Below are positions 22,747 through 45,803 of a stretch of 55,079 nucleotides of DNA, piece after piece. Origin of the DNA: an uncultured Candidatus Saccharibacteria bacterium. Lineage in GTDB: Bacteria; Patescibacteriota; UBA1384; CAJBMM01. The notes beneath the pieces were generated by a model. The model did not search any database and was not told the origin of the DNA. It saw only the letters and a list, made by a program, of their open reading frames with translations. The DNA is taken from the NCBI GenBank assembly GCA_964561525.1, contig CAZLPY010000001.1, positions 1 through 55,079 of the forward strand, read 5' to 3'. Positions within the stretch are counted from its first letter, which is position 1, and the number at the start of each line of letters is the position of its first letter. The position numbers and the translations under genes are program-made.

Positions 22747-23757
22747 GTGATGACTCATGCCTTAATTGGCACCATAGATATTGGTGCTAACAAGAGCCTG
22801 TTTGGCTCTGCGATGAGGCATGAGGGACAGTGGTCCGTTATGCATACTCATGAGCAGAGCACCGAGGAGCTGCAGGGGGCGCTCGATCTGATGCGAATCA
22901 TCAATGAGCAGGTCTGCGAAGCTCAGATCCGTGCGGGACGGCGTTTTGATCTGCTAAGCATTTCTACCGCTGGCGTGCTCGATCTTGAGCGCGGAATGAT
23001 CCTGCACGCTGATCGGCTCGGATTGCACAATGTGCCGCTGCGTCAGCTTGTTAAGGATGCTTTCGGCGTCCCTACCGTCATCGGGAAGGACGGCGACATG
23101 GCTATCCTTGGCGAAGCCCGTTTCGGAGTTGGTCGCGGCACATCCAATTTTATGCGCTTGACCGTCGGATCAGGTATCGGCTTTGGTCTCATCCAAAACG
23201 GACATCTGATCCAAGGCGTAGAAATTGGCTGTCTACAGGTGACCGATCGTTCCTACATTCCGTGCAGCCGCTGCGGCAAGCATAACTGTTTGCGCATGAT
23301 TGCACCCGGCAATGCGATTGAAGGAGCAGTCGTTCATTTCATCGAACAAAAGCAGCCGAGTACGCTGCGACGCCAATTCGATCTCGGCATTCCCTTAAAG
23401 GTGCCATTGATCGGAAGTGCGGCTGCACGCGGTGACGCGCTTGCGCGATCACTTATTAATGCCTCAACTCGAGCCATTGGTGAAGCGATTCACCAGCTTC
23501 AGCGCGCATACCACATCGAGATGTGCGTGATAGGCGGAGGCGTTGCCAATCTCGGACCGATGTTTATCGATCCCATACGGGCATATGTGCCGCAAGTCAG
23601 AATCACCGAATCTGACCTAAACGGCCACGCGGGCTTGTATGGGGCGATCGAAAACGCCACCACTCATCATCCTGATCTTTTGCTGGCAGATCAGACTCGC
23701 TTGACGCATGTGCCAGAAATCTTCCAGCCAGCTTTCGCTGGTTCCGCTGTCGGGTAG
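22747..23757 (+). CDS. ROK-family sugar kinase/regulator-like protein
   Basis: IGTIDIGANK, DGDMAILGEARFG and a Cys cluster PCSRCGKHNCL. The real start is probably the ATG at 22750, 7 nt after AGGAG. Confidence 0.7.
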   Translation: MMTHALIGTIDIGANKSLFGSAMRHEGQWSVMHTHEQSTEELQGALDLMRIINEQVCEAQIRAGRRFDLLSISTAGVLDLERGMILHADRLGLHNVPLRQLVKDAFGVPTVIGKDGDMAILGEARFGVGRGTSNFMRLTVGSGIGFGLIQNGHLIQGVEIGCLQVTDRSYIPCSRCGKHNCLRMIAPGNAIEGAVVHFIEQKQPSTLRRQFDLGIPLKVPLIGSAAARGDALARSLINASTRAIGEAIHQLQRAYHIEMCVIGGGVANLGPMFIDPIRAYVPQVRITESDLNGHAGLYGAIENATTHHPDLLLADQTRLTHVPEIFQPAFAGSAVG

Positions 23758-27428: not shown

Positions 27429-27490
27429 GATATCTTCATTGCATACCAAAAAGCCTAAAAAATCAAATTATTACCACATATTCAGCTGAT

Positions 27491-27530
27491 CAAAAATCAA
27501 AAAAGACTCTGTCAATAAGAGTCTTTCTTT
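27491..27530 (-). terminator. rho-independent terminator; the ancestral terminator of the tRNA-Ser/tRNA-Arg unit
   Basis: AAGACTCT pairs with AGAGTCTT. On the minus strand it is followed by TTTTTGATTTTTG. It lies about 10 nt beyond the E1 left junction. Confidence 0.65.
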
Positions 27531-27539
27531 ACAAAATAC

Positions 27540-27547
27540 TGGTATGC
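27540..27547. repeat. E1 left junction core (attL): copy of the last 8 nt of tRNA-Arg
   Basis: tggtatgc is identical to 32404..32411, the reverse complement of the tRNA-Arg 3' end GCATACCA. Confidence 0.55.
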
Positions 27548-27736
27548 GAACCACCCGATTTATGGAACCAAATTGCGCTTGAACTCAGAGAGCTATCTCA
27601 AATCTTCGGCTTTGAGAATAGTCGCTTACTCGAACACGCTTATAGTTAATTACGAGGCTGTAATGGAACAAGGGCAGGCTCAACTGCATATTAATACCGA
27701 TGAGCTTAGCAGCCCTTATTGATACTTTTAACGAGA

Positions 27737-29035
27737 TCAATCATCTAGGAGGCCGACATCCTTCAAACGCTCATAGAACTCTTTGCCTTGCTGGCCAGTC
27801 TTAATTGCTTCCTCGATAACAGGTTTTTTAATGTAATGTTTCTCACCGAAAGTCATACCTACGCCGTCACTTGGTGATAACTGTCGCATAACCTCTCTGC
27901 TAGTTGCCCGCAGCTTACTTGGTAGGCGTTTTGCAGTACCCATCAATTTCCACCGCTCCGCACTTCTGCCTGTAATGCCAAACGTTAAGCGACCAGTCGT
28001 GATGGCGTAGTCCGCCCCTATTTCTTTGACCTTACTATTAAACTCCCGATTGGTTTGAATTTGATAATCTCGGGATTCGTATTGCTTAAAAATACCGATG
28101 ATTTGGTCGGCAACGGTGAGACCAAGGCCTTTGCCAACTCGGGCCAACTCTTCAGCAGCCTTATCTTTGTCACCAGACATTGCTAAACCAACCGCTTCTA
28201 GGGTCGATTTTGCCATTTCGTATAAGAGTTGGGTTTTTTCTGGATACTCGGTAGTACGTCCAGCTTGCCTGAAGGCCACGATCATTTCAGGGAGAATTTC
28301 TAGGGGAACAAGAGATGTGTAACCTTTGATTATGCCTTTTTTCCAAGGTACGGAAATTTCCGTATCTTGAATTTGCTTATAGTGCGCACTTAAAACAAAG
28401 TTCGAAAATGTTGTTTTGGCTAGCCATTCGATAAATTGATCTGAGCGAACGCCAATGAATTGAGCAATGGAGGGTAAGCTAATAAGAATGAAGCTCTTAA
28501 CATGCACGCTGTCGATTATTTCGGTGTCAACTTTTACCCATACAATTTCTTCGGGGAGAACTTGAGCCATGGAGGCATTAGTTAAAGATTCGTCGGGCAG
28601 GTCATTATTCGAGGTCTCTACCGCATCATTACCGCTAGCAACCAATTCAATGGCTTCTTCCTGTCCACCTTCCCATTCAAGAATGTGGGTAATTTTGAGT
28701 AGGAGATCTTCCTCAGTCTCTTTATCAGTATTGACTGAGATACCTTTACCGAACAACCCATCAATTACTATTCGTTTGCCCTGCACAGTATCGTAAAAAA
28801 TGCGTAGCTTAGTGCTATCAATTTCAGGGTATCTCGTCTTTATTTTGAGCTCTAGGTCTTTTAGGAGCTCCGCGAGAATGCGGCTACCCACGTAGCATGT
28901 CTGTCCTCTAAAACGCATCGTTTGAATCCTGCCACTTTCTGCCAAACGATAGACCCGCTGCCTATAAAAATACTTTGCCCCGAGCTCTTCTTCGATCTCA
29001 GTGGGGGTGAGCAAGTCAAAATGATGATCTCTCAT
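27737..29035 (-). CDS. hypothetical DNA-binding protein of E1 (N-terminal excisionase/MerR-like HTH)
   Basis: 432 aa. The N-terminus LTPTEIEEELGAKYFYRQRVYRLAESGRIQTMRFRGQTCYV resembles an excisionase-type HTH. I did not recognise the rest. Confidence 0.5.
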   Translation of the reverse strand: MRDHHFDLLTPTEIEEELGAKYFYRQRVYRLAESGRIQTMRFRGQTCYVGSRILAELLKDLELKIKTRYPEIDSTKLRIFYDTVQGKRIVIDGLFGKGISVNTDKETEEDLLLKITHILEWEGGQEEAIELVASGNDAVETSNNDLPDESLTNASMAQVLPEEIVWVKVDTEIIDSVHVKSFILISLPSIAQFIGVRSDQFIEWLAKTTFSNFVLSAHYKQIQDTEISVPWKKGIIKGYTSLVPLEILPEMIVAFRQAGRTTEYPEKTQLLYEMAKSTLEAVGLAMSGDKDKAAEELARVGKGLGLTVADQIIGIFKQYESRDYQIQTNREFNSKVKEIGADYAITTGRLTFGITGRSAERWKLMGTAKRLPSKLRATSREVMRQLSPSDGVGMTFGEKHYIKKPVIEEAIKTGQQGKEFYERLKDVGLLDD

Positions 29036-29104
29036 GATACATTCCTGTTACACTTCTAACACGTTAATGTAACAGGAGAGATGTGTCAATAGGGGTTCGG
29101 TAAA

Positions 29105-29323
29105 TCAGAATTTGACTAGTACAGACAGCTCTTTACCTAATACCTGAGAGATAAGCCAGAGCTTTTTTAACGTTGGATTTCGAAGCCCGCGCTCTAAAAG
29201 AGAAATATAAGTACGATCAACGCCAATTTCTTCAGCGAGCTTTTGCTGACTCATACCAGCTTCAGTTCGCAGCTTAGCGAGCTGAAGGCCAAATTTTACA
29301 GTAATTTCATCTAATTGCGACAT
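29105..29323 (-). CDS. XRE-family HTH transcriptional regulator
   Basis: LAKLRTEAGMSQQKLAEEIGVDRTYISLLERGLRNPTLKKL. I set the start at the ATG at 29323; the longer track ORF adds a Cys/Phe-rich junk-like leader. Confidence 0.75.
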   Translation of the reverse strand: MSQLDEITVKFGLQLAKLRTEAGMSQQKLAEEIGVDRTYISLLERGLRNPTLKKLWLISQVLGKELSVLVKF

Positions 29324-29351
29324 GTAGTCACAGAATAGAAGACAAAAACAT

Positions 29352-29369
29352 AGCTGTATGCGGACAGCT
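29352..29369. promoter_or_regulatory. candidate operator in the divergent promoter region of E1
   Basis: Perfect inverted repeat AGCTGT-N6-ACAGCT between the XRE gene and the divergent membrane-protein gene. Confidence 0.3.
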
Positions 29370-29427
29370 TGTCTCAATTTTACTGCTATGTTATTGTTCG
29401 GTTAATAGAAAATTATAGAGGATTATT

Positions 29428-30153
29428 ATGACATCATTCGCAACAATAATACTGCTTGTATCAATAATCGGGTTAATTATTGCGGTGATCAAACCATCGT
29501 TACTAGAGCGAGTATTCAAGGATCAAAAGATTGGCCGTGGAAAGGCAATACTTGCTTCTACTGCACTCTTTGTCTTGTCATTCTTTATGTTCGTATTATC
29601 GCCGAGCGATAAACAGCCCCAACCAGTAGCGCAAACACAACCCGTAACTCAATCGGTAGCAGAAACCGCTACAACTAAGCCGGTCGCCAGTACTCCTACT
29701 ACACCTCAAACAATAGAGGATAAGTTATGGCAAGCGGTTGATACCGCATTGAAGCAGCGAACAAACATTAAAGTGAGCTACGACGAAAAAGAAAAAGTAG
29801 CGTTCATCGAACACACAGATGCGGATGCATATACCGCTGAAAGCTTTGTTAAGCAAGCTTATGCAATGTTTGTCTTATTCGGCCAAGAAGTTTTCAAGAT
29901 TGACGGTGTAGAGCATGTAAATGCGCAAAATAAGACTACGTTCACAGATCAATACGGCAAAAATAGTATTGAGAGCGGGGTAACGATTGAAATGACCAAG
30001 GCAAATTTTAGTAAATTTGATTGGAAGAATCTTGAATACCAGCAAGTAAACACCCGCATACAAGCAGCTAGTGACATTTATATTATCCGACAGGCATTAG
30101 CTAACGACATCAAAGATCAATCGAAGCTCTATCTCAAATTAAGCTATCCATAA
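29428..30153 (+). CDS. membrane-anchored hypothetical protein
   Basis: N-terminal TM helices, a Pro/Thr/Gln-rich linker (PQPVAQTQPVTQ...TPTTPQT), then a globular C-terminal domain. GAGGA lies upstream of the ATG. Confidence 0.6.
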   Translation: MTSFATIILLVSIIGLIIAVIKPSLLERVFKDQKIGRGKAILASTALFVLSFFMFVLSPSDKQPQPVAQTQPVTQSVAETATTKPVASTPTTPQTIEDKLWQAVDTALKQRTNIKVSYDEKEKVAFIEHTDADAYTAESFVKQAYAMFVLFGQEVFKIDGVEHVNAQNKTTFTDQYGKNSIESGVTIEMTKANFSKFDWKNLEYQQVNTRIQAASDIYIIRQALANDIKDQSKLYLKLSYP

Positions 30154-30181
30154 GATTTAGGGGGCATGCTCTCATTTTTTA

Positions 30182-30676
30182 CTATTCAGCGAGCTCTATA
30201 CCAAATCTTTGAATCTCTTCTTCCAGTTCAGCCTCATTATAGGGAGTCTGATCAGCAGTATGAGATTTTCGCATACCGAGTTCTAATTCTAGCTTTTGAA
30301 CATGCGCTTCTAAATTAATAACTCTATGGGCTTCTAAGAGTTTTCCAGCTAATAAGGCGATGGTGCTCGCTGTCTTAGTGTCGATGTCACCCTCTTGTGT
30401 GGCCATACGGACGCGATTAATTGTGTCGGCAAGTAAATTGATTACACTATGTCCATCGGTCAATTCTAAGGGCTCAAGACGGCAAACATAGTGCGCATGA
30501 GCTATGCGCCCACCTCTCGACTGTGCCAATTTCTTATCTGCATCGCTGATTTCAGGACTATGGAGATAGCAGTAATCAGCGCCTGTCATAGCATAGGCAT
30601 TACATTGTGAACCGTCTTCTTTGACATAACTACATTTCATAACATAACTCGAGTTACTTAGTGTTGACACCCACAT
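30182..30676 (-). CDS. hypothetical protein with an N-terminal Cys/His zinc-ribbon-like motif
   Basis: MKCSYVKEDGSQCNAYAMTGADYCYLH, followed by a helical C-terminus. The start may be the ATG at 30640. Confidence 0.5.
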   Translation of the reverse strand: MWVSTLSNSSYVMKCSYVKEDGSQCNAYAMTGADYCYLHSPEISDADKKLAQSRGGRIAHAHYVCRLEPLELTDGHSVINLLADTINRVRMATQEGDIDTKTASTIALLAGKLLEAHRVINLEAHVQKLELELGMRKSHTADQTPYNEAELEEEIQRFGIELAE

Positions 30677-30790
30677 TGTAAATGAATAGGATTGATTTAT
30701 AAATTATTAGGAGAGCTTGCCAAACACCTTTTGTCTCGAGTGCCGGTAAATTTTACCTAAACAAACACCGCCACTTGGTCAGGTGTTTTT

Positions 30791-30937
30791 GTGTCCAATA
30801 AAGGAAAAAAGCGAGACTCACTAGACGAGGCGACAGTTCATCAAGAGCTGGATGCTTGGGCTGATCTTATGATTGATTTCTATTTGAGCGAACACTATGA
30901 TCAAAATAGTGAGTGTAAGGAAAATCCAAATGGCTAA
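30791..30937 (+). CDS. small ORF (48 aa) overlapping the E1 recombinase start; candidate recombinase accessory protein
   Basis: GTG start after AGGTG. Translation: VSNKGKKRDSLDEATVHQELDAWADLMIDFYLSEHYDQNSECKENPNG. Its stop overlaps the recombinase ATG by 8 nt. The LMIDFYL segment resembles LLDCWL in the E2 counterpart (43812..44162). Confidence 0.4.
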   Translation: MSNKGKKRDSLDEATVHQELDAWADLMIDFYLSEHYDQNSECKENPNG

Positions 30938-32486
30938 TGCTGTAATTTATTGCCGCGTCTCAACGAACGAGCAAGTCGTAGAGGGTAGTAGTCTTATTAC
31001 CCAGCAGAAGGCGTGTGAGGATTATGCGGACAAGAATGGGTATATTATCGTCGAGCGGTTTATTGAAGAGGGAGAGAGCGCTAAAACGGCAAATAGACCT
31101 ACATTGAAGCAATTGCTGGATTATTGCCAACGAAACCATAAGCAAATTGAAGCGCTGATTATTCCTAAAATTGACCGCCTATCAAGGGATGCCTTAGACT
31201 ATGCTACTTTACGTGTTTTCTTTAAGAAGTTGGGTATAGCACTTATTTCCGTATCCGAACCTCTTTCAGATGACCCGACAGGGCGTTTTCTAGAGACGGT
31301 ATTGTCAGGTGCATCGCAGTTGGACAATGAGATACGGACGGAGCGAGCTACCGCAGGGATGAAACAAGCCGTGCAGGAAGGCCGCTATGTGTCAAAGGCA
31401 CCAGTCGGGTATAAAAACGTTGTTTTTAATGACAAAAAGAACATCGCTCCCGATAAAGGTAAGGCAAAATTTGTTGTCAAGGCATTTGAGATGGTGGCGA
31501 GCGGTAAGTATAGCGTTGAGGAGGTACGTCGAATTTTAGAAGCAGAAGGATTTAGAGGGTATAGAGAGGCGAAGATTTCGAAATCTAGCTTTGCTACCAT
31601 GTTACGCAAAAAGACTTATATTGGGCTCATTGAAGCATTTGGCTTAAATATTACTGGATCGTACCCATTTGTGCCGATTGTTGAAGTTGCTGTGTTTGAA
31701 AAGGCGCAGAGTGTATTGAGAAAAGAGCGAGCACCTAATGCATCGCGGTATTCTAAAGAAAACCCAGATTTCCCCCTACGCGGCATCGTAATGTGCCAGA
31801 ATGGTCATAAACTTACCGCAGCATGGTCAACTGGTCGTAATGCGAAGTACGCGTTGTACAGGTGCAATATATGCAAACGGAGTAGCAAACGTAAGCTTGA
31901 CCTTGAAAACGGATTCAAGGCGTACTTAGGTGAATTTGAATATAGCCAATTAGAAACCAAGGCCTTAGAGGCGCGTATCCATGCAAAATGGAATGAAAGG
32001 AATAAAGCAGCGATTGATCATAGAATGCAGTTAAACCTTGAAATTGATCTACTCAAGCAAGATCAAAAGATCTTAGCCAAAAAGGTTGTACAGGGTATTA
32101 TTCCTGATCGAGTTGGTAAAGAAGAAGCAGAGGAAATGGAGAATCGTATTGAAGAATTGCAGTCGACGCTATCTGAAATACCTCAAATCGAGGCTGAAGC
32201 AGACAAAGTAATTGAATATGCTACACAATTTTTAACAGGGATTGGGAATCGGTGGGAAAAAGTTGATCTTAAAGTAAAGCAGCGGTTCCAAAGCTTCGCT
32301 TTTCCTGAAGGTTTTACCTATTACGACAACGGAGAATTTGGAACCACCAAAATCCCGATCATTTTTAAGCAAAAAGCATCTATTTTGGGACAAAATTCTA
32401 GTGTGGTATGCCTGAGAGGACTTGAACCTCTGACCTTCGGCTCCGCAAGCCGACGCTCTATCCAACTGAGCTACAGGCACGAATGA
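30930..32486 (+). CDS. large serine recombinase (E1 integrase); the last ~25 codons read antisense through tRNA-Arg
   Basis: MANAVIYCRVSTNEQ (catalytic Ser), IDRLSRD, a recombinase domain, a zinc ribbon (CQNGHKL...YRCNICKRS) and a coiled-coil region. The ORF crosses the junction core at 32404..32411. Confidence 0.85.
   Translation: MANAVIYCRVSTNEQVVEGSSLITQQKACEDYADKNGYIIVERFIEEGESAKTANRPTLKQLLDYCQRNHKQIEALIIPKIDRLSRDALDYATLRVFFKKLGIALISVSEPLSDDPTGRFLETVLSGASQLDNEIRTERATAGMKQAVQEGRYVSKAPVGYKNVVFNDKKNIAPDKGKAKFVVKAFEMVASGKYSVEEVRRILEAEGFRGYREAKISKSSFATMLRKKTYIGLIEAFGLNITGSYPFVPIVEVAVFEKAQSVLRKERAPNASRYSKENPDFPLRGIVMCQNGHKLTAAWSTGRNAKYALYRCNICKRSSKRKLDLENGFKAYLGEFEYSQLETKALEARIHAKWNERNKAAIDHRMQLNLEIDLLKQDQKILAKKVVQGIIPDRVGKEEAEEMENRIEELQSTLSEIPQIEAEADKVIEYATQFLTGIGNRWEKVDLKVKQRFQSFAFPEGFTYYDNGEFGTTKIPIIFKQKASILGQNSSVVCLRGLEPLTFGSASRRSIQLSYRHE
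32404..32480 (-). tRNA. tRNA-Arg (anticodon GCG), CCA encoded
   Basis: Hand-folded. Acceptor GTGCCTG/CAGGCAT (G1-U72 wobble), D arm GCTC-AGTTGGATA-GAGC, anticodon stem TCGGC/GCCGA with loop TTGCGGA, and T arm AGAGG-TTCAAGT-CCTCT. Confidence 0.85.
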
Positions 32487-32634
32487 GACCTGGACTGGCA
32501 CAAAGATGCTAGTGACTCTTCGCCCTTAGCTTGAGCGATGTTCCGGCTCATCCCCAGCCTTTTTAGTAAAAAATCTGGGTTCTTGCGCAAAACAATCGCT
32601 TTCAGGCGGCGGGCTTGAGGTCACCAAGCGTCGA

Positions 32635-32652
32635 TGGCGGAGAGGGTGGGAT
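32635..32652. repeat. E2 left junction core (attL): copy of the last 18 nt of tRNA-Ser(GCU), one mismatch
   Basis: tggcggagagggTgggat here versus tggcggagagggAgggat at 45674..45691. Confidence 0.7.
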
Positions 32653-32722
32653 AAAACTTGAACACCTTTTGGAATGGCTAGACCAGTTACGGCTGGCCTA
32701 CTCTGAAGATTAACACTTCCGT

Positions 32723-33187
32723 TTATTTTTTCGCAAGGTTTCGGATGACCTCAATTTCTGAAATTATATTGTAAATTTTGATTTCTTTTCCAAGCGTATA
32801 TTCCTTAGACGAGAAACTGTCATTATTCTTTCGGGAAGGCTTTGGGTAACCAAGTTTATCCAATGTAAACAAGTCGACAACGCGATGGTATCTCTTGTTT
32901 TTAGTATTGGAGCTAATTAGGTATATATAATCACGGCCATTTTTCTTGTTGTCATCGGGATCCGTATCCGTCTTACCTTTTTCCTGAAAGTCTCTATTTG
33001 CGTCTTCGTAACACCGGCTAGCTTCATAGTCCCCAGGTCTTTTCTCTCTTTTAAAACAATACAAGGTGTATTTGTTCTGAAAAAAACGATACAAGGCAAT
33101 TGCAGCTAAAGTAACCAACAATAACCCTAGAGTATTTTGAGTTGTCCATTCAACAAATTCTTTTATTAAGGTGATATTTAACGTCAT
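32723..33187 (-). CDS. hypothetical membrane-anchored protein
   Basis: 154 aa, one N-terminal TM helix (LGLLLVTLAAIALYRFF), Lys/Asp-rich. It is very AT-rich with no clear SD sequence. Confidence 0.45.
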   Translation of the reverse strand: MTLNITLIKEFVEWTTQNTLGLLLVTLAAIALYRFFQNKYTLYCFKREKRPGDYEASRCYEDANRDFQEKGKTDTDPDDNKKNGRDYIYLISSNTKNKRYHRVVDLFTLDKLGYPKPSRKNNDSFSSKEYTLGKEIKIYNIISEIEVIRNLAKK

Positions 33188-33225
33188 GGTTTTCTATTTG
33201 GGCGCAGTCCAAATGGCGATAACTT

Positions 33226-33444
33226 TTAAAGAATATCGAACGACTTGAGCTTTAAGACTCTAATGACGTCATAAAGCTTATCAAGGGAAGGGTTTACTTC
33301 GCCACGTTCAATCTGAGAGTAATAACTCCCGTTCATACCTGCTTGGTCGGCGACCTCGTTTTGGGTCAGTCGAGCCTTTTCGCGAGCTGCTCGTAACTTT
33401 TCACCGAGCGCTTTACGCAGATGTTCGTTATTTTTGCTGGTCAT
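33226..33444 (-). CDS. XRE-family HTH transcriptional regulator
   Basis: LRAAREKARLTQNEVADQAGMNGSYYSQIERGEVNPSLDKL. TGGTATGAT (an extended -10-like sequence, 33453..33461) lies 8 nt upstream of the ATG, so the transcript could be leaderless. Confidence 0.75.
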   Translation of the reverse strand: MTSKNNEHLRKALGEKLRAAREKARLTQNEVADQAGMNGSYYSQIERGEVNPSLDKLYDVIRVLKLKSFDIL

Positions 33445-33492
33445 ACGCCGCTATCATACCAGATTCGGCGCAAAAGGTACAGGAGTGGGTAC

Positions 33493-34491
33493 TTACTCTT
33501 TCTCGATATTCTTTAGTACAAAATACCCATCTTCGCTATGAAGCCTAAGTTTGATCTCCGTATCCATCTTTATAATTCCTCTGCCCGGAGGGAAAAGCTC
33601 AATTTCTTTTTCCTCAAGTGCGATTGACGATACCATACCGAGCACTTGCGCATAGTCTGAAGGGTTGTAGGTATCAATTTCTCTCCAATTTTGGATTGCT
33701 TGAATTGGCTTGATAGGACCAGTAGTAACATTGGCAGAGCGTAGAGTTTTATTTCTTACATCGTAGATTCCGACTACTTCTTCAAGTTGTACCGCGCCTT
33801 CGCATGCTCTTGTTTTTACTTCGTAGTTAAAGGCTAAACGATCGGGGGTAAAAAGTTTACCATCCTTATCTACTATTTGAAATTCCGTAGGACTCTCTAT
33901 GGTGACAGTGTGAGTTCCTTTAAGATGGGGAAGAAGGCTGGAATTCCATGGCTCCTTGAATAGCTCGAGACAGCTTATTCTTTCTTCTCCAGTGTTATGA
34001 ATGAGCATGATTTGGTCTAGCGGCATACCTGAAAAGTCACCTCCGTTTGCATGAGCATCCAGCTCTATGCCCTCAACAAAGTAATCTACAAGTAAGGTTT
34101 TCTGGGAAACGGAGAATTTGACTTCCTCATCAGCCGAGTCAATAAGATGAAATAGTTGAATATTCTTATGATCTGCCCACTTCACTGCCCCTTGAGTGTA
34201 GTTAGAATTAGAGATGATGGCGCCCCGCTTCGTACCCAAATCTTCCAATTTCGAAATAAAGGCTTCAATCTCATGATCCCCGACGGTAACTTTCCAGTTC
34301 TTGCACTCTATTGCCAGGAAATCGAACTCTTCTGGACTAATAACTTGCAGATCCACCTCCCGACTATCGTTGGTAATCCGGCCCTTAATTTCCACCTTTG
34401 GTAGGACCTGAGTTTCAGGGGTAGATAGCCGCTTATATAACTGCTCAGCCTTATTCTGATAACGGTCACCTTTTTCTTGCGCTTTACTCAT
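33493..34491 (-). CDS. Mrr-like restriction endonuclease domain fused to an unknown C-terminal domain
   Basis: The N-terminal PD-(D/E)xK pattern matches the Mrr catalytic domain: EVDLQVISPEEFDFLAIECKNWKVTVGDHEIEAFISKLEDLGTKRGAIISNSNYTQGA. About 200 aa of beta-rich sequence follow, with no family I recognise. Confidence 0.6.
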   Translation of the reverse strand: MSKAQEKGDRYQNKAEQLYKRLSTPETQVLPKVEIKGRITNDSREVDLQVISPEEFDFLAIECKNWKVTVGDHEIEAFISKLEDLGTKRGAIISNSNYTQGAVKWADHKNIQLFHLIDSADEEVKFSVSQKTLLVDYFVEGIELDAHANGGDFSGMPLDQIMLIHNTGEERISCLELFKEPWNSSLLPHLKGTHTVTIESPTEFQIVDKDGKLFTPDRLAFNYEVKTRACEGAVQLEEVVGIYDVRNKTLRSANVTTGPIKPIQAIQNWREIDTYNPSDYAQVLGMVSSIALEEKEIELFPPGRGIIKMDTEIKLRLHSEDGYFVLKNIEKE

Positions 34492-34502
34492 GGTAAGCTT
34501 TG

Positions 34503-35786
34503 CTATTTCAACAAGTCATCAAGCGTACAAGACAATAGCGCAGACCGATTCAGGACAATCTGCTCTGCCTGGTTTAGATTTTCTGCAGTCATACGAATGA
34601 ATTTTGTCCGGATGGTATCACCGAGCACCACCCCGTTAGATTTCCGAAGGTAGTCCTCAGTTTTCTTGGCAAACAGTGTTGCGAACAGTTTGAGTTTATT
34701 TTCTGAAGCCGGACTGGTGGTAGTTCCATTCATTTTGATCTCAATAAGCTTGGTTACATCCTGATTCGGCTCACCCGGTAAATCATCTCCTCTGATCCAA
34801 AATTCGCTCATAGGGTATATAACACGGACACGAGCAGCAGGATCATCTTCGGTGAGGTACCAGAAGACAAAGGAGAAAACATCACTCATAACGTCATGAT
34901 GAATATCTACTTTCTCTAGTTTGGTAACCGTGTAGATCTGATACTCCTTCAGCAACCGCAAGTAGCTCTCTCGCCAGCTCTGCAGCCAGTGCTCAATGTA
35001 TGACCGATCGATAAAGAGCGGGAATAAGTCCTGTTCGAGGTTTTTGTTATTGACTTTATTCATCTGTAAAGTCAGCCGGTCAAAAAGAGCCCGGGGATCT
35101 TTTACGTCAACGTTCTTGGCAATTAAGTAATCGAGATCAGGCACAATTTTCTTACCCATATACCACAAGAGATCGTAAATATCCCGGCCTTTTTCTTCGT
35201 AGTTCTCTTTTCCAACTCCACGGGTTCCGCGCAAGAAAATGGCGGCAATTTTACTGGCCATGAGTGCGGACATGTTATAGGTAACGATCACAAAAGAAAG
35301 CTGGTCGTGGTTAATCGGTACCCGCTCGGTCGCCACTTTTGCTGCCACAAAATGATTAAGGTCGAGCTTTACATGCACCTGACTCGACGGATTACCGACG
35401 GCCAACTCCTCATTGACGTGAAATCGCAGCAGCAGGCCGCGTTCGCCCATTACTTTTACGGTCAAAAACTCCTCAGTTGCACTGTATTTATCCGCAAAAT
35501 AGGTTTCAATTTCCTGTTTCAGCTCATCGAGAAACGACCGATTAACCACCTCGGTCACTTCAAAATCCAAATCAACCGACATACGGTCTAGGCCGTGGCA
35601 AATCCGTAAGGCTGAGCCGCCATACATAATCCACTTGCTATACTCTGGGTGGTGATAGATAAAATTAAGCACATAAAACTGCAGCTCTTCTTTGAGAGCA
35701 TTGCGCCGAGTTTCGGCATCTAAATCGCTATAGCTACCCAGGCTATCCAGCTTTTTCTTAAGAATAGATAGAAGCATTTCACTCAT
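34503..35786 (-). CDS. AbiEii/AbiGii-family nucleotidyltransferase toxin with a long C-terminal extension
   Basis: MYGGSALRICHGLDRMSVDLDFEV is the typical AbiEii NTase motif. At 427 aa it is longer than I recall for typical family members (roughly 250-300 aa). It overlaps the AbiEi gene by 8 nt. Confidence 0.75.
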   Translation of the reverse strand: MSEMLLSILKKKLDSLGSYSDLDAETRRNALKEELQFYVLNFIYHHPEYSKWIMYGGSALRICHGLDRMSVDLDFEVTEVVNRSFLDELKQEIETYFADKYSATEEFLTVKVMGERGLLLRFHVNEELAVGNPSSQVHVKLDLNHFVAAKVATERVPINHDQLSFVIVTYNMSALMASKIAAIFLRGTRGVGKENYEEKGRDIYDLLWYMGKKIVPDLDYLIAKNVDVKDPRALFDRLTLQMNKVNNKNLEQDLFPLFIDRSYIEHWLQSWRESYLRLLKEYQIYTVTKLEKVDIHHDVMSDVFSFVFWYLTEDDPAARVRVIYPMSEFWIRGDDLPGEPNQDVTKLIEIKMNGTTTSPASENKLKLFATLFAKKTEDYLRKSNGVVLGDTIRTKFIRMTAENLNQAEQIVLNRSALLSCTLDDLLK

Positions 35787-36399
35787 GGCGCATGTACTCC
35801 TTTACTAACTGGTTAAATTTTTTCTGTTCGGTTTCAGGCATCTCATCAAAATCAATCCGCAGCTCTTCAATCAGTGGCTGAATTTCCTCGAACTGAATAC
35901 CGCGAAACCGGCTGGTACGAAAATAGAGCAAGTCAAACAGAGCTTTGGCTGGAGAAGCGATAAAGAAATCAAACTCTCCCGACACCAGCGAAAAATCAGT
36001 AAACAGTCTCTTATCTATTGACTGATAGCTAAACGTGCCAGCCTTTGTCTGATATTCCCGAGTGACCTTTGGGGTTATAGAGGTAATGCCGTAAATAGCT
36101 TCGGTGGCCAGATTGTAGTACTGCAGGGCTGCCCATGAGCTGACATAGGAAGGAGTACGGATAATATTAGCTAAATAAAACCGGTAGGCGTTATTACTCT
36201 TGTGTTTGCTATAAAAATCAGACGAGACGTACAAACCCTTTTTTAAGGGGATTATTTCCTTACCGCGCAAAAACCGGCTGATGTAGGTATCAACGCTAGC
36301 AGAGGTCAAGCCCAACTGTTCTCCAAGCTGACGAATAGTCTGCTTAGTGAAATGGGGTAGAGTCTCAAGTTGAGTTAAGAGGTTATTACTACTTTTCAT
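35779..36399 (-). CDS. AbiEi-family antitoxin/transcriptional regulator
   Basis: The N-terminal wHTH ends in IPLKKGLYV. It lies immediately upstream of, and overlaps, the AbiEii gene. Confidence 0.65.
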   Translation of the reverse strand: MKSSNNLLTQLETLPHFTKQTIRQLGEQLGLTSASVDTYISRFLRGKEIIPLKKGLYVSSDFYSKHKSNNAYRFYLANIIRTPSYVSSWAALQYYNLATEAIYGITSITPKVTREYQTKAGTFSYQSIDKRLFTDFSLVSGEFDFFIASPAKALFDLLYFRTSRFRGIQFEEIQPLIEELRIDFDEMPETEQKKFNQLVKEYMRHE

Positions 36400-36503
36400 A
36401 ATTATGACACTAATGTATCAAATGTGAAAAGTATTGTCAAGCCATTCTTAAACAATTCCTCATAACAGCTCAGCCTTCGGATGGAATTTTAATAGCCCGC
36501 CGG

Positions 36504-37880
36504 TTAGGGCGGGCTATTGGACGTGTCCTGAAGGAGCCTCTTAAGCTCCTCTTGAATTCGGACGCGAATGAAGCGAGGCAGTTTTGTAAGTTCTTCGTTA
36601 CCCACTGCCGGAGAGATGTGCGGGCGGACAAACGTATACCCGGAGGGCAACCACTCAAGCACACTGATCTCAGTTTCGGCCTCGAAGGCCAGAATGGCTT
36701 GGCGGTGCACTTCGGTCATATTCGCTCGCCGCTTGTGTCCTCTTACACGATGCGGAGTGCTAATCCGCGGATTTGCCAGAGGCGTCCTCGGTAAGACGGA
36801 CTGGCCGCTTCGAGAACTTCTGGGAATGTAAATCCAGCTGCTACCCTCACTTTCGGGCGGCCTGGTTGGTCCACCTGCTTCCGTCTCGTCCCCATTCCCA
36901 CGCCATATTGCTGTAGAAATCGGGATATCGACAGTAGTTACCAAATCGTGGTAGATCTGCACGGCGAGCCAATCAAAGAAGTCGATTGAGCCTCTGTCTT
37001 CATACTCCCGCTGAGAAGCATCAATCAAACTTGTGCTCCGAAGAGCGTCGTAGAGGTGAATGTACGACCCGCTGTCCAGCTCGATGCGGGCGAGAAGGTC
37101 ATGGGCGTTTGTATCCCAGATACTCCTCCTTGCTTTGAGAGTGACTGATGACACGCCAGGTAGTCCAGCGATTTTCACACAGGCACCCTCCGAGTCGACG
37201 GTGTACCGTTGGTTATAGTAGGCCGCCTCCATCAAGTCTTTGTTGCGAAGCGAGCTGGCTCTACCGCTCCACCTTTTATCCTGCAACACCGAGGCGTTAT
37301 GACAGTATTCGGGTTGTGGGATAAGGTCAACATCACTTTGGGCGATGTATTCTAGCGGCAGACTGTAGTAGTGAGCCAGTTCCACCAAGCGACGTGGTGA
37401 AGCCGGCTGAGATAGTTTTTTCCACGCGGGCTTGCTATAGCGAGTGCCGACCAGAGCCCGATATGGATCGCCGAGCAGAATCTGAATCATGGCAGTCACT
37501 TGGCTCATGATTGCTGACTGTTCGACGAGATTGTCGTAGAACTGCAGGTCCGAAGCAAAGTGCTTGAAGGCTGAAACGAGACTGTAGTAATTCTCTCGCT
37601 CGATCATCTTGACCAGGCCAACCACCTCGTCTCGGAATACCCGTTCGTAGGAAGGAGTAAGGTTGTCCGGATCGGAATCCGGGCCTACCTCGTTGGCTAA
37701 CGCCCCGTAGATTTGATACGCCCGGTTGACAACGTCTTGGTCACCTCTGGGCCTCAATGTGGGAGGCGCCTCATGAACCGTGATGCTGTCTGGCATTGGG
37801 CTTGCATACGCCCAGTTTTCACGCAGAGAATCCCATACCAAACCGGCGCAAACACGAATTACTCTTGGATCGCTCCACAT
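36504..37880 (-). CDS. hypothetical protein (458 aa), GC-richer cargo gene of E2
   Basis: AAGGAGAG lies upstream of the ATG. The C-terminal basic motif is STPHRVRGHKRRANMTEVHRQAILAFEAETEISVLEWLPSGYTFVRPH. I recognised no family. Its composition contrasts visibly with the AT-rich neighbours. Confidence 0.6.
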   Translation of the reverse strand: MWSDPRVIRVCAGLVWDSLRENWAYASPMPDSITVHEAPPTLRPRGDQDVVNRAYQIYGALANEVGPDSDPDNLTPSYERVFRDEVVGLVKMIERENYYSLVSAFKHFASDLQFYDNLVEQSAIMSQVTAMIQILLGDPYRALVGTRYSKPAWKKLSQPASPRRLVELAHYYSLPLEYIAQSDVDLIPQPEYCHNASVLQDKRWSGRASSLRNKDLMEAAYYNQRYTVDSEGACVKIAGLPGVSSVTLKARRSIWDTNAHDLLARIELDSGSYIHLYDALRSTSLIDASQREYEDRGSIDFFDWLAVQIYHDLVTTVDIPISTAIWRGNGDETEAGGPTRPPESEGSSWIYIPRSSRSGQSVLPRTPLANPRISTPHRVRGHKRRANMTEVHRQAILAFEAETEISVLEWLPSGYTFVRPHISPAVGNEELTKLPRFIRVRIQEELKRLLQDTSNSPP

Positions 37881-37904
37881 TGCTTATCTCTCCTTGTTAA
37901 GGTG

Positions 37905-37933
37905 TGTTTGCGAGAAAACATTTCTCACAAACA
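37905..37933. promoter_or_regulatory. candidate operator palindrome between divergent genes
   Basis: TGTTTGCGAGAAA-ACA-TTTCTCACAAACA. The arms are complementary at 12 of 13 positions. Confidence 0.35.
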
Positions 37934-38104
37934 ATCTGAGATCATAGCATATCCAGAGTAAATTGTCAAGTTCTGGTGGCTTCGCGCAGTCTTGATTACA
38001 CTTCTTCCCAAATCTCGTTCTGCACCTAGAAATTTCCTTCCTGATCTGGTATAAGTAAAAGACTCATCGTATTGATGAATCACTCGGTAAAAGGAGCTTA
38101 GATA

Positions 38105-38431
38105 ATGCGCGATTACGATCGAAAAACGCTCTCAGATATGATGGGCGTGGATTGGACTGCTGACGCAGTCAGCGGTGAGCCCGGTACATCAGCAATCTTT
38201 CGAGAGATAGTGACGGTGGTAGAACAAGTGATTCGAGAGGGTGCTCACAGCCTGATCAATGAGGGCCCCGTGCCGCTTGCCGAGCGAATTGTCTCTCATC
38301 TGGCTCGTACCTACCGCTTTTCGCCATCTCCGCTTGAAGTGACCACCGCTGAGCGAGAAAAAGACACGGTTATTGGCACATTTGTGTGGATTGGACGAGC
38401 ATATCATTTCACTGCAACACCTTCAAAGTGA
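38105..38431 (+). CDS. hypothetical protein (108 aa)
   Basis: AAAGGAG lies 7 nt upstream of the ATG, and a terminator follows. I recognised no family. Confidence 0.55.
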   Translation: MRDYDRKTLSDMMGVDWTADAVSGEPGTSAIFREIVTVVEQVIREGAHSLINEGPVPLAERIVSHLARTYRFSPSPLEVTTAEREKDTVIGTFVWIGRAYHFTATPSK

Positions 38432-38476
38432 GAATGTGCGATCCATCAAACGAATCAATCTCCACATCGGATTCTT

Positions 38477-38514
38477 GGGGTGACCACTGTGTATAGTGGT
38501 CACCCTTCTTCATT
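38477..38514 (+). terminator. rho-independent terminator, possibly bidirectional
   Basis: GGGGTGACCACT pairs with AGTGGTCACCC, followed by TTCTTCATT. Confidence 0.55.
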
Positions 38515-39296
38515 CAAATTTCTTCCCAAATCTCACTCATCACACCCTCTGCTTTCACCGACTCCTGAGTAGCAAACCAGAGCCGTAAATCATTCAACAC
38601 GTCATTCTCCTCTTTAAGTTTCTTCACATACCGTTTGGCATAAATAAGCGTGGGCTTGTCTGGACAAACAAATAGGAGAGTTGGAAAATCGTTCTGTGTC
38701 TCGGCCTCCCAGGTACCGCTTTCGGCAAACTCAACGTACTCGCGGATGCGTTTGCGGATAGAGTACTTGGGCAGGGTAGGCGAAAAAGCCTCGAGCAAAT
38801 ATGCCACTGCCTTCTTGCCTTTTTCTTTCACCAGAACCAGATTTGGCCGGAGCTCCGAGAGGAACTGGAACTTCGAGCCATCCATCAAGATTTGTGCCTC
38901 GGTGTGAACCCACCAGACGAGCGCGTGCTGGGTCTCATTTTCCGTAAACGATAGGGCAATATCTCCCAGCAGAACCCGCTGCTGGATAAAGGCGTCGCTT
39001 CGGGTATCCTCCTTGTAGCGCTTTCTTAACTCTGACCCTTCGATTCCTAGCGACTTCACATACCTGATGCCATTTGACCCAATATAGTAAATAGCCGGCT
39101 TGGTGTTCTCGCTAAACCCCCTGGAATAGATGCGTTTGAGATATTGTTTCTCGACTAGGTCAGGGAGCCAGATGTTGATAGTTTTCTTGTTTTTGTGGCG
39201 TAAAAAGGCTTGGATCTGAATGCGGTTGAGAAAGCGGTAATAGTAAATAAGGATAAGGATTGCCTGTTGTTGTTTGGTAATTGGTGGAAGGTTCAT
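38514..39296 (-). CDS. replication-relaxation family protein
   Basis: The N-terminal wHTH pattern ITKQQQAILILIYYYRFLNRIQIQAFL is typical of the Replic_Relax family. It is adjacent to the coupling-protein-like ATPase. Confidence 0.6.
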   Translation of the reverse strand: MNLPPITKQQQAILILIYYYRFLNRIQIQAFLRHKNKKTINIWLPDLVEKQYLKRIYSRGFSENTKPAIYYIGSNGIRYVKSLGIEGSELRKRYKEDTRSDAFIQQRVLLGDIALSFTENETQHALVWWVHTEAQILMDGSKFQFLSELRPNLVLVKEKGKKAVAYLLEAFSPTLPKYSIRKRIREYVEFAESGTWEAETQNDFPTLLFVCPDKPTLIYAKRYVKKLKEENDVLNDLRLWFATQESVKAEGVMSEIWEEI

Positions 39297-39438
39297 AAGG
39301 TGTCCGGTGTATGTGGTGGTATGTGGTGCTTTTTGCCAACCCCTCCTACTCCGATATAGTTAAGGGTAGGTGATACAATATTTTCATATCTGATCTGAAA
39401 CAGCAAGATATTTTGCCATCGCTCGTGATGGCAAAACT

Positions 39439-42330: not shown

Positions 42331-42415
42331 GCGTTATTTATGGCTCTGGTATATCAGATTTACAGATAAGGTGCAATCTAATACAAAAAGGTCATTTGGG
42401 AAGAGAGATAATTCT

Positions 42416-42451
42416 ATGAAAAAGGGCGACCACAAGACTAAGTGGTCGCCC
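42416..42451 (-). terminator. rho-independent terminator
   Basis: GGGCGACCAC pairs with GTGGTCGCCC. On the minus strand it is followed by TTTTTCAT. Confidence 0.6.
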
Positions 42452-42480
42452 GAAGGTCAACAATGCAACTTCCGCTCGAA

Positions 42481-42885
42481 TTACTCCGACGGTATCTCCA
42501 TGACGTGCCCCTTGTGATTGTGTGGTCGGCAGAAAAGCCGAATCCTCGGACTTTGGAAGCAGTACAGCCTGTTCGCATTCACCATCACCACACTTCCCTC
42601 AACGGTATAGGCATAATCTTCGGTGCGATCGACGCGGAACACCTGCACGCCCAGTCTGGTTTTCGGATTATCCTCGTGATTCCCGGGAATATCCTCGGAT
42701 TTATATTCGGTTTTCCGCCTAGAACTGATGGCGAAGTTTGCCAGATGGAGCATACTAGGTTCCGAGAAAGTTCCACTGGTCAATGATTGGCAAATCTCAA
42801 GCAGAGAAGGACAGCACTCAATTACATGCTGATCCGCCTCCAGGATGATCTTGCGACCTCGTCCGAAATCAAACACGAGTTCCAT
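42481..42885 (-). CDS. hypothetical protein (134 aa)
   Basis: GAGGAG lies 6 nt upstream of the ATG, and a minus-strand terminator lies downstream. I prefer this over the overlapping plus-strand ORF 42442..42786. Confidence 0.55.
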   Translation of the reverse strand: MELVFDFGRGRKIILEADQHVIECCPSLLEICQSLTSGTFSEPSMLHLANFAISSRRKTEYKSEDIPGNHEDNPKTRLGVQVFRVDRTEDYAYTVEGSVVMVNANRLYCFQSPRIRLFCRPHNHKGHVMEIPSE

Positions 42886-42930
42886 GTTAAGCTCCTCAGC
42901 TAGAATTAGCCCAATCAGGTGTCTCTGGAG

Positions 42931-44162: not shown

Positions 44163-45803
44163 ATGGACGCACTGGGGTTAGCAAACCTGAAAGGGCAGGA
44201 AAAAGCAGTGGTATATATCCGGGTCTCCACTGAGGAGCAGGTGGAAAACTACTCGCTCGATACCCAAGCCGAAATCTGCACCAAAGAAGCCCAGAAGCGC
44301 AATATGCAGGTACTGCACGTATTTCGAGAGGAAGGAAGGTCAGCCAAGACCATCACCAAGCGTCCGATTCTCGTTGAGATGCTGGAGTTCTGCCGCAAAC
44401 ACAAGAAAGAGGTAGATGCGGTGATCGTCTATAGGTTAGATAGGGTATCACGGCAGACCACCGATTATCTCACCATTCGCAAAAAGCTCTCCGAATACGA
44501 GATTAAACTGATCTCCGCCACTGAACCAACCGGCAACAGTCCGACTGAGAAGTTTATTGAGACCATGTTGGCTGGGTTTGCTCAGATGGATAACGACGTG
44601 CGGGGTGAGCGCAGCCGCAACGGCCTCCGAGCTCGCTTTATGAATGGCTTGTGCAGTTATGTTACTCACGGCTACTTAAATCAGCATGGCTATATCGGGA
44701 AAGACCCGGAGAGTTTTGAGCAATTCAAGCAGGCCTGGGAGTTACTGGGAACGGGCACGAAAACGCTGCGGGAGATTGGAGATCTTCTTTACGACCAGGG
44801 TGTGCGGCAGAAGAAAAAGGGCGGCAAACTCCTGCCTCAGACCTTAAACCGCATTTTCCGCAATAAGTTTTATACCGGCGTGGTGGTCTCCAAGAAATAC
44901 GCTATGGAGGTCAAGGGGCAGCATCCAGCCATGATTACCGAGGAGCTGTTTTACCGCGTTCAAGCGATTCTTGACGGCCGCAACGTCAACTTGAAGCCGT
45001 CACTGACTAGACGAAGAAAAGATAACGCTGAGTTCCCGCTACGCCGAATTATCAAATGTGCCGCCTGTGGCTCCTCCTATTCGGGGGCCTGGAGCCAGGG
45101 CAAGCGCTCTCGCTATGCTTACTATTTCTGTGCCAAACGCTGCACAGAGTGCGGCTCCAAAGGTGTGGATGAGATGCAGCAAGAAGCGTACAAGGAGCTG
45201 GTAAAGATCAAAATTAACCCTAAGGCCATCACCCTCTTTAACGCTTGGCTGCGCCAGAAATACTTCCAGCGCATCAGCGACCTGCAGAAACGGCTAGACG
45301 ATGCCGATGAGGAGCTCAAGAGCCTCTATGAGCTGCGCCAAACCCTTATTGAGAAGAATCTGAAGGGTATTTATTCGGACGAGATCTTTAAGGAGCAGAA
45401 CCGCCATATTGAAGGTAAAATAAAAAATATCCAGTTCACCAAAAATGACGAGGTACTGGACAAGTACAACCTGGAAAAAATTACTACATTCGTCGAAATA
45501 AAACTCTCAGATGTGCCCCTAACCTTCTCACATTCAACGCTCAATGAGGTTAGGGTACTGCTGTGTTCAATATTCCCAGAAGGCATGCCATATGGTCGAA
45601 ATGGCTTTGTGAACACGCCGCCCAGCCCGTTTTATCAGGTTTTTCTGGGCTTTCCGCATACGGCTATCCCTTCTGGCGGAGAGGGAGGGATTCGAACCCT
45701 CGCTACGTACAAAGTACGTACTACAGGTTTAGCAAACCCGCCCCTTGAGCCACTTGGGTACCTCTCCATGCTTCGAATATTTTATCACGTAACAGTCAAT
45801 TGA
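44163..45803 (+). CDS. large serine recombinase (E2 integrase); the last ~40 codons read antisense through tRNA-Ser
   Basis: KAVVYIRVSTEEQ (catalytic Ser), LDRVSRQ, a zinc ribbon (CAACGSSYSG...YFCAKRCTECGS) and a coiled coil. It is homologous to the E1 recombinase. Confidence 0.85.
   Translation: MDALGLANLKGQEKAVVYIRVSTEEQVENYSLDTQAEICTKEAQKRNMQVLHVFREEGRSAKTITKRPILVEMLEFCRKHKKEVDAVIVYRLDRVSRQTTDYLTIRKKLSEYEIKLISATEPTGNSPTEKFIETMLAGFAQMDNDVRGERSRNGLRARFMNGLCSYVTHGYLNQHGYIGKDPESFEQFKQAWELLGTGTKTLREIGDLLYDQGVRQKKKGGKLLPQTLNRIFRNKFYTGVVVSKKYAMEVKGQHPAMITEELFYRVQAILDGRNVNLKPSLTRRRKDNAEFPLRRIIKCAACGSSYSGAWSQGKRSRYAYYFCAKRCTECGSKGVDEMQQEAYKELVKIKINPKAITLFNAWLRQKYFQRISDLQKRLDDADEELKSLYELRQTLIEKNLKGIYSDEIFKEQNRHIEGKIKNIQFTKNDEVLDKYNLEKITTFVEIKLSDVPLTFSHSTLNEVRVLLCSIFPEGMPYGRNGFVNTPPSPFYQVFLGFPHTAIPSGGEGGIRTLATYKVRTTGLANPPLEPLGYLSMLRIFYHVTVN
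45674..45767 (-). tRNA. tRNA-Ser (anticodon GCU), CCA encoded
   Basis: Hand-folded. Acceptor GGAGAGG/CCTCTCC, anticodon stem CGGGT/ACCTG with loop TTGCTAA, a long variable arm, and T arm GAGGG-TTCGAAT-CCCTC. Confidence 0.85.

Follow-up and report, generated by a model that had tools for sequence, protein, structure and literature searches.

Sequence evidence that a large serine recombinase gene of a Candidatus Saccharibacteria bacterium is partitioned by integration at a tRNA-Arg gene

The 55,079-nucleotide stretch analysed here (hereafter the window) comprises positions 1 to 55,079 of the forward strand of contig CAZLPY010000001.1, from assembly GCA_964561525.1 of an uncultured Candidatus Saccharibacteria bacterium. 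It carries a small integrative element, designated E1 (27540..32411; 4,864 bp), which is seated at the extreme 3' end of a tRNA-Arg gene and encodes a large serine recombinase (LSR). The open reading frame (ORF) of this recombinase runs across the attachment site into the tRNA gene, and its frame resumes at the other end of the element. We estimate a probability of roughly 0.85 that integration partitions the E1 recombinase gene and that a form of the enzyme ending in a helix is rebuilt upon excision.

In the integrated state, the recombinase ORF occupies 30930..32486 on the plus strand (alternative start 30897) and encodes 518 or 529 residues, the body of the gene extending to 32411. The ORF reads ...ILGQNSSVVC and then LRGLEPLTFGSASRRSIQLSYRHE*, with the codons V-V-C (gTG GTA TGC) lying over the core copy TGGTATGC of the right attachment site, attR (32404..32411, plus strand; discriminator position 32407). 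The last 25 sense codons (32412-32483, plus strand), followed by the stop at 32484-32486, are the antisense of the tRNA-Arg gene (anticodon gcg; 32404..32480, minus strand; 77 nucleotides). This gene was identified as intact by ARAGORN and Rfam (70.9 bits) and forms the B' arm of the bacterial attachment site, attB; the antisense of its T-loop, TTGAACC, lies at 32422-32428, +15 from the discriminator. The initial annotation described an ORF that crosses the core and continues as tRNA-Arg antisense, and this description of the sequence is accurate. Its further statement, that the ORF ends antisense inside the tRNA, holds for the antisense reading and not for the end, as all 77 nucleotides are crossed and the stop lies just past the tRNA 5' end (32480). 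Convergent transcription through tRNA-Arg would follow from this layout.

The left attachment site, attL, holds the second core copy TGGTATGC (27540..27547, plus strand; discriminator position 27543), the reverse complement of the tRNA 3' end GCAUACCA. Directly after this copy, at 27548, the recombinase frame resumes and reads EPPDLWNQIALELRELSQIFGFENSRLLEHAYS*, a detached 3' end of 33 codons plus a stop (27548..27649, plus strand; stop at 27647-27649) that corresponds to the C-terminal amphipathic helix of the family. Within it, the codons W-N-Q(1) spell TGGAACC (27563..27569, plus strand), a motif 20 nucleotides from the discriminator. This motif resembles the antisense of the tRNA T-loop and is like the zinc-ribbon domain (ZD) motif of attP, the attachment site of the free element. 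Outside E1, 11 nucleotides from the left core copy, the host DNA contains a terminator-like hairpin with a T-run (27499..27529, minus strand; 12-pair stem). In the reconstructed empty site, the hairpin (27529..27499) stands directly 3' of tRNA-Arg, and similar hairpins occur in the attB left arms of relatives. The displacement of the tRNA-Arg terminator by E1 amounts to 4.9 kb.

The E1 recombinase matched the Pfam families Resolvase (PF00239, E = 7e-33) and Recombinase (PF07508), and the catalytic R-V-S motif, which contains the serine nucleophile, was invariant in alignments A1 and A2. The E1 family profile matched the A118/LI and SPbeta integrases, including the recombinase domain (RD) and ZD regions of 4kis and 9dxh, and PF13408 was found in many E1 homologues and in the recombinase of a second element of the window, E2. 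The helix-ended E1 protein was reconstructed and modelled by AlphaFold2 (AF2) with 35 helix-tailed homologues, which resulted in a mean pLDDT (predicted local distance difference test) of 84. Foldseek related this model to the full-length SPbeta, Bxb1, and phiC31 integrases (9dxd, 9iu2, and 9rah), with E values down to 3e-18. Residues 499-513 (LWNQIALELRELSQI) were modelled as helical, with a mean pLDDT of ~74 over 501-510. The crossover residues 488-494 (QNSSVVC) had a pLDDT below 50, as did the segments 269-277 and the extreme C-terminus, 518-527. Since the attachment core falls in a linker predicted by AF2 to be disordered, the codons there would be free to match the tRNA end. Judged by sequence and model, the predicted product of the ORF at 30930..32486 is a complete LSR; the catalytic domain, RD, ZD, and coiled coil all remain on one fragment after the partition, and the ORF stays open.

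The core repeat does not in itself locate the element. Four copies of TGGTATGC are present in the window against 1.5 expected, and four were reached in 7 of 100 shuffles; at such a chance level, the repeat alone provides no evidence for the ends of E1. The copies at 27441-27448 and 23506-23513 (both on the minus strand) were judged to be chance occurrences on the same count. The former, an inverted copy, lies 92 nucleotides from attL, just upstream of a 187-residue ORF. A repeat search of 22-38 kb revealed no long repeat bounding E1, and the same search exposed the tRNA-Ser fragment of E2. A sceptical account can be built from these data, in which the protein ends near the core, read-through into the tRNA gene and the open frame at 27548 are both due to chance, the true ends of the element are elsewhere, and the partition is an annotation artefact. 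The chance level of the 8-mer agrees with it, 33 open codons are not rare, and the G+C content is low on both sides of tRNA-Arg, from 27 to 36 kb. The low G+C content to the right of tRNA-Arg, however, is explained by E2, and the presence of the displaced terminator also argues against this account.

A profile of the C-terminal helix supplied evidence independent of the repeat. The profile comprises 24 columns, contains only residues downstream of the crossover, and was derived from 28 helix-tailed homologues. Over the window, the frame 27431..27646 ranked first of 2,131 six-frame segments (E = 0.0017; the runner-up had E = 0.17), and a search limited to the 12 kb upstream of the E1 recombinase returned the same tail with E = 0.00086. 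The continuation of the recombinase frame into 27548..27649 for 33 codons, first noted as an open frame, is confirmed by this result, and a top match in the window at exactly the predicted place and frame is contrary to a chance origin. This repeat-independent evidence supports the placement of the far end of the 4,864-bp element at 27540.

Homologues of the E1 recombinase number more than 1,000, at ~40% identity, and show two kinds of C-terminus. Among the best 120 of them, 78 have antisense-tRNA-like tails, e.g. ..SSxVDPTGLEPATPSLQMRCSTR. At least 28 of the remaining 42 end, after a variable linker, in a helix motif with the consensus [FIL]WNQ-x3-EL-x2-L-x2-I[LF], to which the detached tail of E1, DLWNQIALELRELSQIF, conforms. 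Up to the crossover residue, helix-tailed and tRNA-tailed forms share 82-87% identity; P0114, encoded by a circular relative, aligns with the tRNA-tailed P0025 at 87% identity over residues 1-492, and this alignment extends no further than the crossover. The helix-tailed proteins end variably (...HAYS, ...LVEI, ...KPHHF, among others), without a conserved terminal tag, and the residues beyond the helix are unconserved and of variable length. The proposal of a native amphipathic helix as the C-terminus is borne out by the same motif in this minority of homologues and by the AF2 helix at 499-513.

An unpartitioned helix, often after linkers of 30-60 residues, was observed in L040, L048, L057, L043, L060, and other loci on Bacteroidota and Armatimonadota chromosomes. 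These ORFs have no tRNA at their ends, and their attachment sites must be elsewhere. Because the helix is kept unpartitioned after much longer linkers, it is ancestral to the protein, and an attP placed before the helix is derived in the tRNA-targeting clades.

Relatives of E1 were found both as circles and as integrated copies. The helix-tailed P0014 was recovered from many samples, on contigs of 7.8-8.8 kb. Terminal overlaps of 141 nucleotides are present in two contigs of different ENA samples, which, when trimmed, are exact rotations of one 7,754-bp circle (0 mismatches); in two JGI contigs, the overlaps are 127 nucleotides long. The helix-tailed P0114 and P0090 are encoded on Logan contigs of 12.2 and 10.4 kb, respectively, with 30-nucleotide terminal overlaps. 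No tRNA gene was found on the circles carrying P0014 and P0114, the two covered by the scan. In IMG/VR, the search returned only 8 distant relatives, with at most 36% identity over the best-matching segment, and no episomal forms.

For the integrated relatives, a genome scan with one genome per species provided 80 loci. At 38 of these, a tRNA gene is overlapped in antisense by the end of the ORF; Ala-tgc was the commonest target, and Glu, Lys, Leu, Arg, Ile, Tyr, Val, and Met were also represented. The helix profile (E <= 0.01) matched same-strand sequence up to 10 kb upstream at 13 of these 38 tRNA-overlapping loci, and no match was obtained in three control sets of the same 38 loci (the opposite strand upstream and both strands downstream). 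At 12 of the 13 non-window loci, a copy of 5-11 nucleotides of the tRNA 3' end stands just before the match, and across this core the tail keeps the frame of the ORF (chance 1/3 each), implying elements of 4.6-10.3 kb. A frame open by coincidence would not be expected to give 12 in-frame tails of 13 with zero matches in the controls. The L008 and L039 loci share a tRNA-Ala target and a distal tail that begins LSLPIWNQFINELKQLY..., and at L008, ~8 kb upstream of the tRNA-Ala-ended ORF, GTGGACC is followed in frame by LSLPIWNQFINELKQLYIITNANST*, which is nearly the tail of the circular P0014. An extra 18-nucleotide fragment of the tRNA-Ala 3' end (GTGGACCCTAAGGGACTC) was observed at 3281-3298 of L008, ~190 bp outside attL, and may be the scar of an earlier or tandem integration. 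None of the integrated ORFs is interrupted before the crossover.

The initial annotation had proposed to compare the C-terminus with relatives, circular forms included, and this comparison resulted in helix tails on circles and tRNA tails in integrated copies. The two predicted C-terminal isoforms correspond to the two topological states. The partition of the integrase gene by integration, which it had suggested for E1, gains support at the family level from the two kinds of tail, the circles of relatives, and the in-frame distal tails at 12 of 13 loci. Neither of the contrary outcomes it had named for homologues, an end before the core or a tRNA tail kept whatever the site, was found among the relatives, and circular junctions were present in them.

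To describe the geometry of the sites, attP and attB were reconstructed for 16 elements with the tRNA discriminator as position 0. The dinucleotide GT at -1/0 was invariant in attP as well as attB (16/16 sites). In attB, T[CT]GAAC(C), the antisense of the T-loop, is located at +15 in 16/16, and T[GC]GAAC(C) is located at +20 in attP in 15/16, the exception being TACAACC. The 5-bp shift of the ZD motif between attP and attB is present on the right arm only. In the LI/A118 integrase, the attB ZD motif is 5 bp nearer the centre than in attP (Rutherford et al. 2013, PMC3783163), and the phiC31 attP footprints place the RD at 4-15 bp and the ZD at 17-27 bp, with base pairs 28-30 not modelled there. 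Since the +15/+20 spacing agrees with the LI/A118 shift and the phiC31 footprints, the geometry is as expected of a bona fide LSR site pair. The same fixed spacing counts against the coincidence of core and open frame, an account that we regard as extremely improbable and effectively refuted. The centre of the site appears to be at the discriminator/CCA junction, probably at this exact dinucleotide, and the ZD probably reads the tRNA T-loop. Additionally, a short palindrome (e.g., AAAGACGCCATTTCGGCGTCT) was observed in the recombinase codons upstream of the crossover, in the attP left arms of L022, L028, L029, and L023 (~-33 to -13).

The P' arm of attP is also coding sequence, as the codons TTT TGG AAC CAA (FWNQ) coincide with its ZD motif. 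The Asn codon of WNQ is AAC in 18/18 tails versus a background of 37% AAC in the same genes, which indicates a constraint on the DNA at this codon. In the outer helix, 42-66 nucleotides from the centre, the codons for Glu, Leu, and Ile are synonymously variable; the GAA:GAG ratio is 11:6 versus a 63% background, and CTA, CTT, TTA, TTG, and CTC are all used for Leu. Synonymous variation at the background ratio, with the residues kept, points to selection on the outer helix at the protein level. The sequences in these codon tests are related, and the P values are indicative only.

These patterns bear on a neutral alternative, in which attP overlaps the gene end through compactness and tRNA mimicry, the helix is dispensable, and the two isoforms behave alike. 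DNA-level fixation of the FWNQ codons, with AAC in 18/18 and the string TTT TGG AAC CAA, agrees with this alternative, as does a motif placed exactly at the expected ZD position. The unconserved post-helix residues of variable length also suit it, and solved LSR structures show disorder at the C-terminus (28 residues in SPbeta; 590-605 in phiC31). However, E14, L18, I21, and L22, which lie 42-66 nucleotides from the centre and thus beyond the phiC31 attP ZD footprint, are kept as residues with synonymous codons, and the unpartitioned relatives in Bacteroidota and Armatimonadota retain the helix at no fixed spacing from the crossover-equivalent position. Furthermore, an effect on directionality has been reported for the extreme C-terminal part of SPbeta SprA (Abe et al. 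2021, as cited in PMC11722253). We consider a purely neutral origin rather unlikely, while keeping it as a serious contender.

In the mechanism that we favour, partition by integration, E1 would have been inserted by its own LSR at the very 3' end of tRNA-Arg, with the crossover at or beside the discriminator/CCA junction. The attP would be located inside the recombinase ORF, in the QNSSVVC linker between the ZD and the conserved C-terminal helix. Its P' arm would be encoded by the tail codons TGG AAC C (W-N-Q), 20 bp from the centre, and the motif would mimic T(C/T)GAACC, the tRNA T-loop antisense that lies 15 bp from the centre in attB. Integration would spare the tRNA, move the last 33 codons to the far end (27548..27649), and fuse the body of the ORF to the tRNA antisense, whereas excision with circularisation would restore the helix-ended protein. 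We infer that E1 is still mobile.

Several points weigh against this interpretation. The 8-nucleotide core lacks significance by itself, the left arms of the 16 reconstructed sites showed no inverted counterpart of the ZD-like motif, and it could be chiefly the DNA site, and not the protein, that keeps FWNQ conserved. The AF2 confidence in the helix is moderate, ~74 at 501-510, dropping to 59 at 511-520. The helix is unpartitioned in many Bacteroidota and Armatimonadota relatives, so a helix tail does not always denote an episome. The predicted circular junction of E1, ATTCTAGTG-TGGTATGC-GAACCACCC (...TCTAGTG-core-GAACCAC...), and its empty site each had zero exact 26-27-mer matches in JGI metagenome contigs, the contig index had no record of the E1 protein, and the E1 protein cluster has one member. 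Due to these results, there is no direct evidence that E1 itself excises. A tblastn search of the host ORFs against all the retrieved loci gave no match.

The failure to find the E1 circle and empty site in the JGI contigs would likewise be expected of a suicidal lock, in which the prophage protein is inactive without its C-terminus and integration is effectively irreversible unless an intact episomal copy supplies the enzyme. Integrated copies are indeed very common (78 of the best 120 homologues; 38/80 genome loci), and archaeal tyrosine integrases offer a precedent (PMC7253208, PMC8371274). However, the loss comprises only ~33 residues after the last DNA-binding domain and leaves the catalytic, RD, ZD, and coiled-coil parts intact, and the integrated ORFs are uniformly open to the crossover. 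Close lineages, up to 87% identical, occur in both states, which suggests frequent switching. In our judgement, such a lock is improbable.

Partition of the gene may have consequences for the enzyme. We tentatively suggest, at somewhat less than even odds and from sequence and analogy, that the helix is functional in the episomal enzyme and that its loss alters the prophage enzyme, in directionality or by inactivity, which would amount to a state-dependent switch. It is doubtful, and clearly less probable than a switch in this general sense, that the helix is a directionality element working without a recombination directionality factor (RDF), with the helix-ended enzyme locked to attP x attB and the tRNA-tailed enzyme competent for attL x attR or bidirectional. 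If true, DNA topology itself would set the direction of a serine integrase.

Besides the recombinase, E1 encodes a regulator of the Cro/CI type and contains a small conserved ORF as well as three ORFs that had no confident match to a family. The regulator (29105..29377, minus strand; 90 residues) belongs to HTH_3 (PF01381, E = 4e-17) and to PHROG repressor families. The largest of the three ORFs, the cargo ORF of 432 residues (27737..29035, minus strand), had no family match and could encode a replication or maintenance protein. The second encodes 241 residues (29428..30153, plus strand), and the third, of 164 residues (30182..30676, minus strand), had a weak match to a small terminase subunit family (E = 9e-4). 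The small ORF (30791..30937, plus strand; 48 residues, GTG start) overlaps the recombinase start. A profile from five non-window copies had its top window match at 30791-30937 (E = 0.014), and a small ORF upstream of the LSR is kept in related elements, at 7073-7237 of L001, 7933-8199 of L007, 547-792 of L089, 302-568 of L090, and 8208-8474 of L091. Its motif is ALDYLAEVLVDAFL or LSDLLIDIYL, and the E1 version is DAWADLMIDFYL. The product is a candidate accessory or directionality factor.

The second element, E2, repeats the arrangement next to E1. It is a ~13-kb element (32635-45803 of the window) between an 18-nucleotide tRNA-Ser 3' fragment (32635-32652) and tRNA-Ser(gct) (45674-45767, minus strand; TCGAACC at 45692-45698, +15). 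At its left end (32635..32713, plus strand), the tRNA-Ser fragment, with the 12-nucleotide exact core TGGCGGAGAGGG, is followed in frame by ...GGIKLEHLLEWLDQLRLAYSED*; the detached tail (32647-32713, plus strand) has TTGAAC at 32658-32663 (+20). The E2 LSR (44163..45803, plus strand; 546 residues) reads antisense through all of tRNA-Ser(gct). It is only 29% identical to the E1 LSR, yet has the same partition anatomy and the same +15/+20 geometry. After joining at the core, the C-terminus of the E2 LSR would read ...GGIKLEHLLEWLDQLRLAYSED*, and the attP motif is read there in a different frame, as L-E. Tails of the tRNA-antisense kind occur in most of its best 120 homologues, and helix tails of the form LLE-x-I-x2-I in two. 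In the E2 family, the integrated homologues L092 and L095 had no repeat of at least 9 nucleotides within 10 kb upstream. E2 also encodes a TrwB/HerA-like ATPase (39439-42330), a Replic_Relax protein (38514-39296), AbiEii (34503-35786), and an Mrr/NERD (Mrr-like) nuclease (33493-34491).

The ancestral locus appears to have comprised tRNA-Ser(gct), 154 bp (32481-32634), tRNA-Arg(gcg), and the terminator, with both tRNA genes now occupied by different LSR elements. Elsewhere in the window, a host ORF with a T4SS_pilin domain (PF18895) is located at 50881-52068, and a host sugar dehydrogenase has named homologues in Uhrbacteria and Parcubacteria at 55-57% identity; the two observations point tentatively to a host of the Patescibacteria type.

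The two clades examined have ~1,000 database homologues each, most of whose top-scoring members have tRNA-antisense tails, and such genes are at present annotated with meaningless tRNA-antisense C-termini. The arrangement provides a practical rule for locating both ends of elements in the genomes of uncultivated bacteria. It also bears on the open question of how serine integrases control direction without, or besides, an RDF. If the ZD reads the universal T-loop, one enzyme family could retarget among many tRNAs, and the T-loop as a ZD motif would constitute a modular rule of site recognition that could help in the prediction of attachment sites and the retargeting of LSRs for genome engineering.

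Known LSRs (A118/LI, Bxb1, phiC31, and SPbeta SprA) have the same domain order as E1, namely catalytic N-terminal domain, recombinase domain, and zinc-ribbon domain, the last with a coiled coil. They also share short attachment sites, a ZD motif 5 bp further out in attP than in attB, and probably a non-palindromic central dinucleotide, which would be GT in E1 as it is in Bxb1. In contrast to them, E1 has attP inside the ORF of its own enzyme, and integration changes the C-terminus of that enzyme; our full-text literature search found no description of an LSR with attP so placed, which is not proof of absence. The E1 family further differs in targeting the 3' end of many tRNA genes, with the universal T-loop as the probable attB ZD motif, and its elements are only 4.6-12 kb and almost absent from IMG/VR.

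In SPbeta, the RDF has an essential helix that fits between the ZD and the coiled-coil hinge, beside Int F532, which belongs to an extreme C-terminus with a reported effect on directionality (PMC11722253). A short helical or hydrophobic element near the ZD/coiled-coil hinge controls direction in SPbeta, and the E1 helix would be tethered just after the ZD. The SprA/RDF helix and the E1 tail have no sequence similarity, and the likeness is one of analogy only.

A C-terminus that depends on the state of integration is also known from mycobacteriophage BPs and its relatives, in which attP is in coding sequence and the switch is functional; in BPs, the prophage form of gp33 is likewise shorter by 33 residues (PMC4557955). 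Unlike in E1, the split gene of BPs is a repressor, the integrase is a tyrosine integrase, and the lost segment is an ssrA-like degradation tag (PMC4557955). The helix tails of the E1 family carry no ssrA-like terminal tag of the BPs type.

The closest parallel in layout is found in the SSV-type tyrosine integrases (SSV1, pTN3, and pT26-2), in which attP is in the integrase ORF, integration at a tRNA splits the gene, and excision rebuilds it. The E1 enzyme differs in being a serine recombinase without the tyrosine recombinase fold, and in being bacterial and not archaeal. The SSV-type split leaves two inactive pseudogenes, whereas E1 loses ~33 codons after all the known domains and gains a read-through tail. 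According to a 2021 review, self-disrupting recombinases are known only from archaea (PMC8371274). The sequence comparisons presented here support an extension of self-partitioning, from archaeal tyrosine integrases to bacterial large serine integrases.

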